A DNA stretch of 64,000 nucleotides from Escherichia coli O127:H6 str. E2348/69 (GTDB taxonomy: Bacteria; Pseudomonadota; Gammaproteobacteria; Enterobacterales; Enterobacteriaceae). The stretch lies in NCBI RefSeq assembly GCF_000026545.1, contig NC_011601.1. One strand, written 5' to 3'. The notes under the pieces were generated by a model. It did not search any database, was not told the DNA's origin, and saw only the letters and a program-made list of their open reading frames with translations. Below, in pieces: positions 45,509 to 47,499 of the stretch (positions within the stretch are counted from its first letter, which is position 1; every line of letters starts with the position of its first letter). The position numbers and the translations under genes were made by a program.

Positions 45509-45560
45509 GACTAACTCCTTTTTTATCATCTCTGGAACACACACAATCCGTGTGCAGGTC
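45509..45560 (-). promoter_or_regulatory. glgC leader with CsrA-binding hairpin/SD region
   Basis: Minus strand reads CACACGGATTGTGTGTGTTCCAGAGATGATAAAAAAGGAGTTAGTCATG; GGA-containing hairpin and SD are the known CsrA targets. Overlaps the 3' end of glgX. Confidence 0.65.
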
Positions 45561-47499
45561 CCTGCCAGACAGCCGTAATCACTGGGTTATCCTCTCCAGC
45601 GAATGGGGGAATGGCGTGCCACTCCCCAGCAGGTAAAACAATCTCTGTTACCTCAAGCGTGGCGTTAATTGCGATCAAAAAGCGATCCGAGAGCAGAATT
45701 TGCAGCTGTTTCGGCCCGTTTTGCCACTCATCCGTGCTTAAAGGTTGAGCATATCGATTTAGCCAACGGACATTGCCGTCGCCTTCTTCCCACCAGCGAT
45801 TCTCCATCAAAGCGGGAATGCGCTTGCGCAGATGGATTAACGCGGCGGTAAATGCGGTTAAACCACTGCTTGCCTGCGACCAGTCCAACCAGGTTAATTG
45901 GTTATCCTGACAGTAGGCATTGTTATTGCCATGCTGGCTGTGACCATGTTCGTCACCGGCCAGTAACATCGGCGTACCCTGGGAGAGCAACAACGTTGTT
46001 AACAGGGCGTGAATGCTGTCGCGCCGCCGTTCAACCAGATCAAGAGTACCGCCTAACCCTTCTTTACCATGATTGTTACTGTAATTGTTGTTGGTCCCGT
46101 CGCGATTTTCTTCTCCGTTTGCTTCATTGTGTTTATGGTTGAAGCAAACGCAGTCGCGAAGCGTAAAACCGTCATGCGCGGTGACGAGATTAATCGCGGC
46201 ACTCGGCAGACGACCATTACGTTTAAAAACATCGCTGGAGGCAGCAAAACGCCCGGCAAACACTCCCAGAGGTAAATCATAATGCAGCCAGAAACGACGG
46301 GCTGCATCGCGGAAATGATCGTTCCACTCGGCAAACAGCGGCGGGAAATTTCCCACCTGATAACCACCAGGAGCGATATCCCACGGTTCAGCAATTAACT
46401 TCACCTGCGAGAGCACCGGGCAGTTCTGGATAGCGGTAAACAACGGCGCATCCTGACGAAACTCTGGCGTACGGCCCATGACTGCCGCCAGATCAAAGCG
46501 GAAACCATCGACGTGGCAGGTTTCTACCCAATAACGCAGGCAGGCGCTGGCATAATCTACCACCGCCGGATGACTCAAATTGAGCGTGTTACCACAACCG
46601 GTCCAGTTGTGATAATCGCCGTCTTCTCTTATCCAATAATAGCTACGGTTGTCGATCCCACGCAGCGAGAATAACGGGCCGTCGAGGTCCAGTTCCGCAC
46701 TATGGTTGAGCACGATATCAAGAATGACTTCGATACCCGCTTTATGCAGTGCTTTGATTGCATCGCGAAACTCATCCAGCGCCGTTTCTGGCGAGCAGGC
46801 ATACGCCGGATGCAGCGCAAACATCGCCACCGGGTTGTAACCCCAGTAGTTACTAAGCCCCATACGTTGCAGACGTGGTTCGCTGGCAAATTGTGCCACC
46901 GGCAGCAGTTCCAGCGCTGTAATGCCCAACTGTTTCAAATAGTTGATCATCACCGGATGCCCCAGGGCTTTATAAGTGCCACGGATCTCGACCGGGATCT
47001 CCGGGTGCAGATACGTTAATCCTTTGACATGGGCTTCATAAATGATGGTGCTGCCCCACGGCGTGCGCGGCGGGGCATCATCCTCCCAGTCATAGTGATC
47101 AACCACCACTACGCATTTCGGCGCAATGGCGGCGTTGTCGCGATAGTCAGGTTCATTATGACCGGCGTGCAGCAGCGGGTTATCTTTAAACTCCCCGTCA
47201 ATTTGCCGCGCGCAAGGATCAATCAACAACTTCGCCGGGTTAAAGCGATGCCCCTCGGCGGGTTGCCAGGGGCCATGAACGCGATAACCATAACGCAAAC
47301 CCGGGCGCGCATCCGGCAGATAACCGTGCCAAATGTCGCCACTGTGCCCTGGCAAGTCATAGCGATGTTCCTGGCCATTGGCATCAAAGACACACAGCTC
47401 TACCCGCTCGGCATGAGCGGAGAAAAGTGTGAAGTTGACGCCCTGACCGTCGTAATGCGCGCCGAGGGGAGTGGGTTTGCCAATGGCGAGTTGTGTCAT
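45526..47499 (-). CDS. glgX: Glycogen debranching enzyme
   Basis: 657 aa, [41 protein letters not shown]13. Confidence 0.95.

Follow-up and report, generated by a model that had tools for sequence, protein, structure and literature searches.

The glgBXCAP region lies on the minus strand of the window analyzed here, a stretch of 64,000 nt from Escherichia coli O127:H6 str. E2348/69. A 501-nt query taken from this segment matched E. coli chromosomes at 100% identity, in 5425 of 5426 complete genomes, and the ends of glgX and glgC agree with the RefSeq annotation of an identical E. coli record. At the junction of the two genes the minus strand reads ...TGG CAG GGA CCT GCA CAC GGA TTG TGT GTG TTC CAG AGA TGA, followed by the spacer TAAAAAAGGAGTTAGTC and by ATG GTT AGT... 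(Table 1). The glgC start was originally predicted to lie 17 bp past the glgX stop, and this is what the sequence contains, with TGA at 45528-45526, ATG from 45508 and a spacer of 17 nt. In the mechanical list of open reading frames, glgC is extended upstream to a GTG at 45544. The glgC product is ADP-glucose pyrophosphorylase, a modulator of glycogen synthesis, and both glgBXCAP and glgCAP transcripts have been described (PMC10819704).

The extent of the leader was obtained from a fragment of the glgC leader, "+46 to +179", which is given with its primer sequences in PMC2896534. Since these primers and coordinates fall at 45597 and 45464 of the window, +1 is position 45642 and the leader measures 134 nt. 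Its first 117 nt (+1 to +117 of the 134) are glgX coding sequence, comprising codons 620-657 plus the stop. The original prediction that the glgC leader overlaps the end of glgX is correct for the hairpin and the upstream sites, which are coding, but not for the Shine-Dalgarno (SD) sequence, which is located in the intergenic spacer outside glgX. The predicted span of 45509-45580 contains both hairpin and SD, but the true leader reaches 45642, about 60 nt beyond that upper coordinate, and two more conserved hairpins are found in the additional part. Romeo and Preiss reportedly placed the leader start inside the upstream gene in 1989, and accounts of the glg cluster have long included this feature. 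A promoter consensus scan around the junction found none, with no good sigma-70 consensus upstream of the reported +1, and a search of 45300-46900 on both strands against Rfam 15 gave zero matches at E ≤ 1; the glgC leader is not a curated family.

Table 1. Features of the glgX-glgC junction in window coordinates and, where given, in coordinates of the glgCAP leader (+1 = 45642, +134 = 45509)
Feature	Window position	Leader position	Strand	Basis
glgX ORF, closing with TGA	47499..45526		-	
glgX stop codon TGA	45526..45528	+115 to +117	-	Sequence reading and annotation
glgX-glgC spacer, 17 nt, TAAAAAAGGAGTTAGTC	45525-45509		-	
glgC SD AAGGAG, within the spacer, containing the second CsrA GGA	45515..45520	+123 to +128	-	
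glgC start codon ATG	45506..45508		-	Sequence reading and annotation
glgCAP 5' leader, 134 nt	45509..45642	+1 to +134	-	Primer mapping
Hairpin H1, GGGGAGUGG-CACG-CCAUUCCCC	45606..45627	+16 to +37	-	Pair probability 0.89-1.0
Hairpin H2, stem GCUGG/CCAGU, loop GGA at +51	45581..45600	+43 to +62	-	Pair probability about 0.95
Hairpin H3, GCACAC-GGAUU-GUGUGU, 6 bp	45539..45555	+88 to +104	-	Folds, alignment, literature
H3 loop GGA, Gly651 codon, core of CsrA site ACGGA	45547..45549	+94 to +96	-	
Optional outer extension of H3, GGA (+82 to +84) with UCC (+107 to +109)	45534..45561		-	MFE

A hairpin with GGA in its loop precedes the SD

Because the gap between glgX and glgC is only 17 nt, the hairpin closest to the glgC start, H3, is made of glgX codons 649-654 (Ala649-His-Gly-Leu-Cys-Val654), and its bases are both coding and regulatory. 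The ACGGA of H3 occupies 45551-45547, and the hairpin string of the original prediction, CACACGGATTGTGTGTG, was placed at 45554-45538. Folding upstream of the glgC start returned the predicted hairpin and the GGA motifs in every construct folded, H3 being present in both the MFE and the centroid structures of constructs of 83, 149, 29, 19 and 15 nt. When the partition function was computed for the leader with 30 additional nt, H3 had pair probabilities of 0.72-0.78, with G95 and A96 of the loop unpaired (P = 1.0) and the SD GGA largely unpaired. The outer extension of H3 keeps 93% of cells paired across 29 Enterobacteriaceae, with one-sided changes only.

One MFE structure showed a slipped 7-bp register of H3 with GAUUG in the loop. 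This register was rejected, given that its pairing across the alignment was 79% versus 96% for the canonical one, and that all pairs were kept in 7 of 29 sequences versus 23 of 29.

Isolated H3 is more stable than its shuffles (z = -2.8 to -3.1). For the leader as a whole no such gain over shuffling was seen, either at 83 nt (z = +0.09) or at 149 nt (z = -1.0), and overall stability was discarded as a criterion. Hairpins with GGA in the loop are not enriched in the 64-kb window, with 128 observed and 127 ± 10 in dinucleotide shuffles. Since such hairpins are equally frequent in shuffles, function is not established by sequence alone. The arrangement of hairpin, AGGAG and ATG is found three times in the window, with 0.5 expected. 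Taken by themselves, the sequence statistics are suggestive, not decisive.

The two other occurrences of this arrangement were inspected individually. At 59540..59592 (+), the only other such site on the plus strand of the window, a GGA-in-loop hairpin and an AGGAG(GA) SD with ATG precede a 146-amino-acid ORF (59589..60029) for a Gln-rich secreted protein next to ggt, which on sequence grounds is a possible CsrA target. The third match, at 13714 (-), precedes an internal Met and looks like chance.

The location of a stem-loop at a gene junction would also suit a transcription terminator, attenuator or RNase processing signal that separates glgBX from glgCAP, and several 5' ends upstream of glgC, which Romeo and Preiss are said to have found in 1989, would fit such a role. 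However, H3 has a stem of only 6 bp, of about -7 kcal/mol, and no U-tract past it, the transcript continuing with UGUUCCAGAGAUGAUAAAAAAGG. A scan of 45400-46000 for intrinsic terminators found none, the stem being followed by UGUUCCAGAG with no U-run, and there is no Rfam match. We therefore regard this role of H3 as extremely improbable.

The leader is rich in GGA and contains two further hairpins

The leader contains six GGA triplets in its 134 nt, versus a mean of 2.06 for windows of the glgB-X-C mRNA strand, only 1.1% of which have six. In the partition-function ensemble described above for the leader, these triplets are single stranded only at +51, +94 and +125. The first of them lies unpaired in the loop of H2, just beyond the region covered by the original prediction. 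Within the H2 stem, the pair between the third positions of Ala634 and Pro639 is U-A in Escherichia and C-G in other genera, a change that is both compensatory and synonymous. Two further CsrA sites have been placed upstream, and H2 is a candidate for one of them. For H1, 96.6% of cells are paired in the 29-species Enterobacteriaceae alignment, with wobble changes only, and 29 of 30 genomes code its Gly625 as GGG.

Conservation of the leader at synonymous sites

A scan of species-representative genomes provided 80 Enterobacterales loci, with Salmonella and Klebsiella not among them, and in 75 of the 80 a long ORF ends close upstream of glgC. One of these 75 (L032), in which the C-terminus is unrelated and the gap measures 127 nt, was excluded when clades were compared. 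The structure alignment comprised 29 Enterobacteriaceae species, and the comparative counts obtained from these loci are not phylogenetically independent. In this alignment 92 to 97% of the cells of the three leader hairpins are paired, and sliding the 3' partners by 1 to 3 columns brought this down to 40 to 60%. H3 itself has 96% of its cells paired, with compensatory A-U/G-U/G-C and C-G/U-A changes.

This pattern could arise if H3 were a mere by-product of the conserved C-terminal peptide of GlgX, Ala-His-Gly-Leu/Val-Cys-Val, with regulation exerted at the SD site only. Indeed, four of the six H3 pairs (1-17, 2-16, 4-14 and 5-13) follow necessarily from GCN, CAY, UGY and GUN, the codons of A-H-x-x-C-V, 28 of the 41 species outside Enterobacteriaceae form at least five of the six pairs from the same codons and lack the loop GGA, and the frequency class of H3 is not above chance in the window. 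Because four of the six pairs are forced by the amino acids, a test for selection on the RNA rests on the free positions. These positions show synonymous-site constraint and compensatory changes, which speak against the by-product. The pair between the third positions of Ala649 and Cys653 is G-C in 18 sequences, G-U in 6 and A-U in 3, and that between the third positions of His650 and Val652 is C-G in 22, with one U-A and one G-U variant. The substitutions are synonymous throughout. Ala649 is the sole column with 100% third-position purine among 36 conserved Ala columns, and His650, coded CAC in 27 of 28 sequences, is the most skewed of 16 His columns. The loop residue Gly651 is coded GGA in 26 of 30 genomes, versus 10.5% GGA usage in glgX. 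Among 47 conserved Gly columns only three have a GGA majority, and two of these (635 and 651) are inside the leader.

The leader is also the most structure-conserved part of glgX. When 210 windows across the gene were scored with RNAalifold, codons 625-654 ranked first (z = -4.9, 90-nt window) and the top six windows were all within the leader. Its synonymous diversity is 0.66 to 0.85 of expectation, the second-lowest region of glgX. The two free stem pairs and the rare glycine codon that supplies the loop GGA sit at synonymous sites that look selected. The original prediction had the same nucleotides serving as coding sequence and as control element, and this dual use is supported by the constraint on the synonymous sites of codons 649-652, which preserves the stem and the GGA. 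Considering, in addition, that the H3 loop is where the published ACGGA footprint, the peak of the CLIP-seq reads and the point mutants made in reporters are located (see below), we find it very unlikely that H3 is only a by-product of the peptide.

Of 32 Enterobacteriaceae loci, 31 have the SD GGA, placed 10 nt ahead of the ATG, and its distance from the loop GGA is 30 to 32 nt in 22 of the 24 species that bear the loop GGA.

Several loci depart from the usual junction. The glgX-glgC spacers of Pseudocitrobacter faecalis (L012) and of a Pluralibacter metagenome-assembled genome (L017) measure 54 and 22 nt, respectively, and the inserted sequences have GGA motifs of their own in potential small hairpins (CCGCGGAGGGCGGAUG; GCUCGGACGUGUAACGAGC), with 71 nt in L012 and 51 nt in L017 between the ancestral hairpin and the SD GGA. 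In a Lelliottia sp. (L018) and an Enterobacterales metagenome-assembled genome (L041), the glgX frame continues past its normal stop and into the start of glgC, with an 8-nt overlap; the altered GlgX C-terminus may reflect either genuine variation or an indel in the assembly.

The scans of glgX also brought out two regions upstream of the leader. The strongest synonymous conservation of the gene is found at 46606..46677 (-), GlgX residues 275-298, where observed/expected diversity is 0.43 to 0.62 and which takes ranks 1 to 13 of 643 synonymous-diversity windows. Its codons CGC GGA ATY GAT AAC CGT AGC TAT TAT TGG ATH AGG are near-invariant in 30 Enterobacteriaceae genera but free to vary in other families. 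Of the 47 Gly columns, Gly281 is the third with a GGA majority, although E. coli itself has GGG there. RNAalifold gave no conserved RNA structure for residues 275-298, and a scan gave no sense-strand promoter consensus. Antisense to glgX, at approximately 46589..46616 (+), a sigma-70-like TTACCA-16 nt-GATAAT with an upstream TG adjoins the constrained stretch (1 found, 0.2 expected) and could hint at an antisense transcript. The second-best RNAalifold structure in glgX, with z of about -2.9, is a long imperfect hairpin around GCCGAUGUUACUGGCCGGUGACGAACAUGGUCACAGCCAGCAUGGC, at approximately 45880..46015 (-), residues 496-540. Additional 5' ends of transcripts near glgC have reportedly been placed in this region.

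The loop GGA is confined to Enterobacteriaceae

The loop GGA is present in 27 of 32 Enterobacteriaceae species and in none of 41 species of Erwiniaceae, Yersiniaceae, Pectobacteriaceae and Hafniaceae, family assignments having been spot-checked. In 28 of these 41 species at least five of the six stem pairs are nevertheless formed without the loop GGA, since these species have kept the A-H-x-x-C-V peptide. The glycine is still present in most Erwiniaceae (10 of 13), where it is coded GGC or GGT, and in most Yersiniaceae the loop residue is Ser, Asp or Thr. The other GGA sites, that of the SD included, persist in the families outside Enterobacteriaceae. The occurrence of a GGA-less, hairpin-compatible sequence in 28 of the 41 species indicates that the H3 stem is partly a coding by-product.

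The leader matches the published CsrA target

CsrA-type post-transcriptional control was first elucidated on the glgC leader. Two primary CsrA sites have been assigned to it, one overlapping the SD and one in the loop of the hairpin located just upstream (PMC7652899, PMC2896534). The footprinted site other than that of the SD is ACGGA, and point mutants of its middle bases alter repression (PMC6028588). In Salmonella, reads from CsrA CLIP-seq coincide almost perfectly with the GGA hairpin of the glgC leader (PMC5207318). Repression of glgC-gfp and glgC'-'lacZ fusions is relieved by CsrB or when csrA is mutated (PMC7652899, PMC5207318). As summarized in PMC7652899 from Mercante 2009, the hairpin is a high-affinity tether from which the CsrA dimer bridges to the SD and blocks translation. 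Bridging by CsrA is functional over 10 to 63 nt, with an optimum above 18 nt (PMC7652899).

The window agrees with this description. The published ACGGA and SD sites fall on H3 and on AAGGAG, within the span of the original prediction, a correspondence that was drawn through reviews, the ACGGA string and the primers. The distance from the loop GGA to the SD GGA (45518-45516) is 31 nt, which is inside the published bridging range. The SELEX consensus for CsrA is RUACARGGAUGU, with GGA in a hairpin loop; the corresponding window sequence, GCACACGGAUUG, contains both its ACA and its GGA and has 8 of 12 matches overall. As in CsrA-repressed leaders, a second GGA overlies the SD, 10 nt before the ATG. 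The junction shows the loop GGA, the SD GGA, the inter-site distance and, within Enterobacteriaceae only, the conservation beyond coding of a dual-site leader in which CsrA occludes the SD. A full-text literature search for the H3 hairpin string returned no match.

Proposed mechanism

We assign a probability of roughly 95% to the reading that the window contains the classic E. coli CsrA leader of glgC, with a hairpin tether, bridging to the SD and repression of glgC. Under this mechanism, transcripts that start inside glgX (+1 = 45642) would carry a 134-nt untranslated leader. One RNA-binding face of the CsrA dimer would bind with high affinity to the loop GGA of the hairpin at 45555-45539, and the other would reach the SD GGA at 45518-45516, 31 nt downstream. 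The resulting bridge would block the 30S subunit, so that glgC translation is repressed and the mRNA is secondarily destabilized. Sequestration of CsrA by the sRNAs CsrB and CsrC would lift the block and allow glycogen to be made.

A different arrangement is conceivable on the full-length glgBXCAP mRNA, where ribosomes translating glgX would unfold the hairpin, terminate 17 nt upstream of glgC and re-initiate. Translational coupling would then be the main role of the junction, the stop-start spacing would set glgC expression, and CsrA control would act mainly on the internally initiated glgCAP transcript. The description of both transcripts (PMC10819704) suits this proposal. The short distance from stop to start is widespread, mostly 10 to 18 nt in Enterobacteriaceae, and, judging from the geometry of the sequence, a ribosome terminating at 45528-45526 would cover the SD 8 to 11 nt downstream. 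However, the spacing is not precisely conserved, as it ranges from -8 to +65 nt with insertions of 22 to 54 nt in Pluralibacter and Pseudocitrobacter, and glgC has a strong, independent and nearly invariant SD, AAGGAG, 7 nt before the ATG. Moreover, CsrA regulation of glgC needs the region around the start codon and no glgC promoter (PMC7652899). Coupling as the main role is, in our estimate, rather unlikely; it is plausible as an added layer that is compatible with the CsrA explanation and does not replace it.

The CsrA tether may have been exapted from pre-existing coding sequence, with transcript-specific repression as a corollary, a scenario that we put forward tentatively and at slightly less than even odds. 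The A-H-x-x-C-V peptide specifies four of the six stem pairs throughout Enterobacterales, and the distribution of the loop GGA suggests that the stem, a by-product of coding, came first and that high-affinity CsrA binding arose within Enterobacteriaceae. This family alone may have fixed the loop glycine and its GGA codon and tuned the two free pairs synonymously. As a corollary, CsrA would be displaced from the hairpin by the ribosomes that translate glgX on full-length glgBXCAP mRNA, so that only the glgCAP transcript, initiated internally, would be subject to repression of glgC by CsrA. The dual use of these bases is partly split by transcript, given that the region is untranslated on the glgCAP mRNA and translated on the glgBXCAP mRNA.

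The regulatory role of the glgC leader is already known. It has been published since 2002, its interpretation is textbook knowledge and glgC is the paradigm among CsrA targets. Others have shown where CsrA binds, that it bridges the sites, that it represses glgC and that it cross-links there in vivo. What is added here is the exact mapping in the window, the conservation and the selection on the RNA at synonymous sites. This is a modest addition, consisting of a clean case of RNA-level selection on synonymous coding sites and of a loop GGA confined to Enterobacteriaceae. The correct annotation of the leader bases matters for editing of the glgX 3' end and for the design of glgC reporters, as synonymous recoding of the last ~38 codons of glgX would disturb the regulation of glgC.

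Comparison with known CsrA systems

As far as later papers convey the work of Baker et al. 2002 and Mercante et al. 2009, the leader in the window is the E. coli glgC leader described there, with the same locus and the same nucleotides. The allele is O157:H7-like or otherwise identical, and there is no difference in kind.

The CsrA-repressed leaders of cstA, pgaA, hfq and cel of ColE7 resemble that of glgC in having a GGA over the SD and often another in the loop of an upstream hairpin, and in these leaders CsrA competes with the 30S subunit, as it does at glgC. They are described as untranslated 5' regions, whereas the upstream sites of glgC belong to the last 38 codons of glgX and are constrained by the protein. 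The repeat hairpins of CsrB/CsrC (RsmZ/RsmY) and the SELEX ligands share with H3 the short stem, the GGA in a loop of 5 to 6 nt and the combination of ACA and GGA. The sites on CsrB/CsrC are, however, decoys on noncoding RNAs that sequester CsrA, whereas H3 of glgC is a single tether on an mRNA target.
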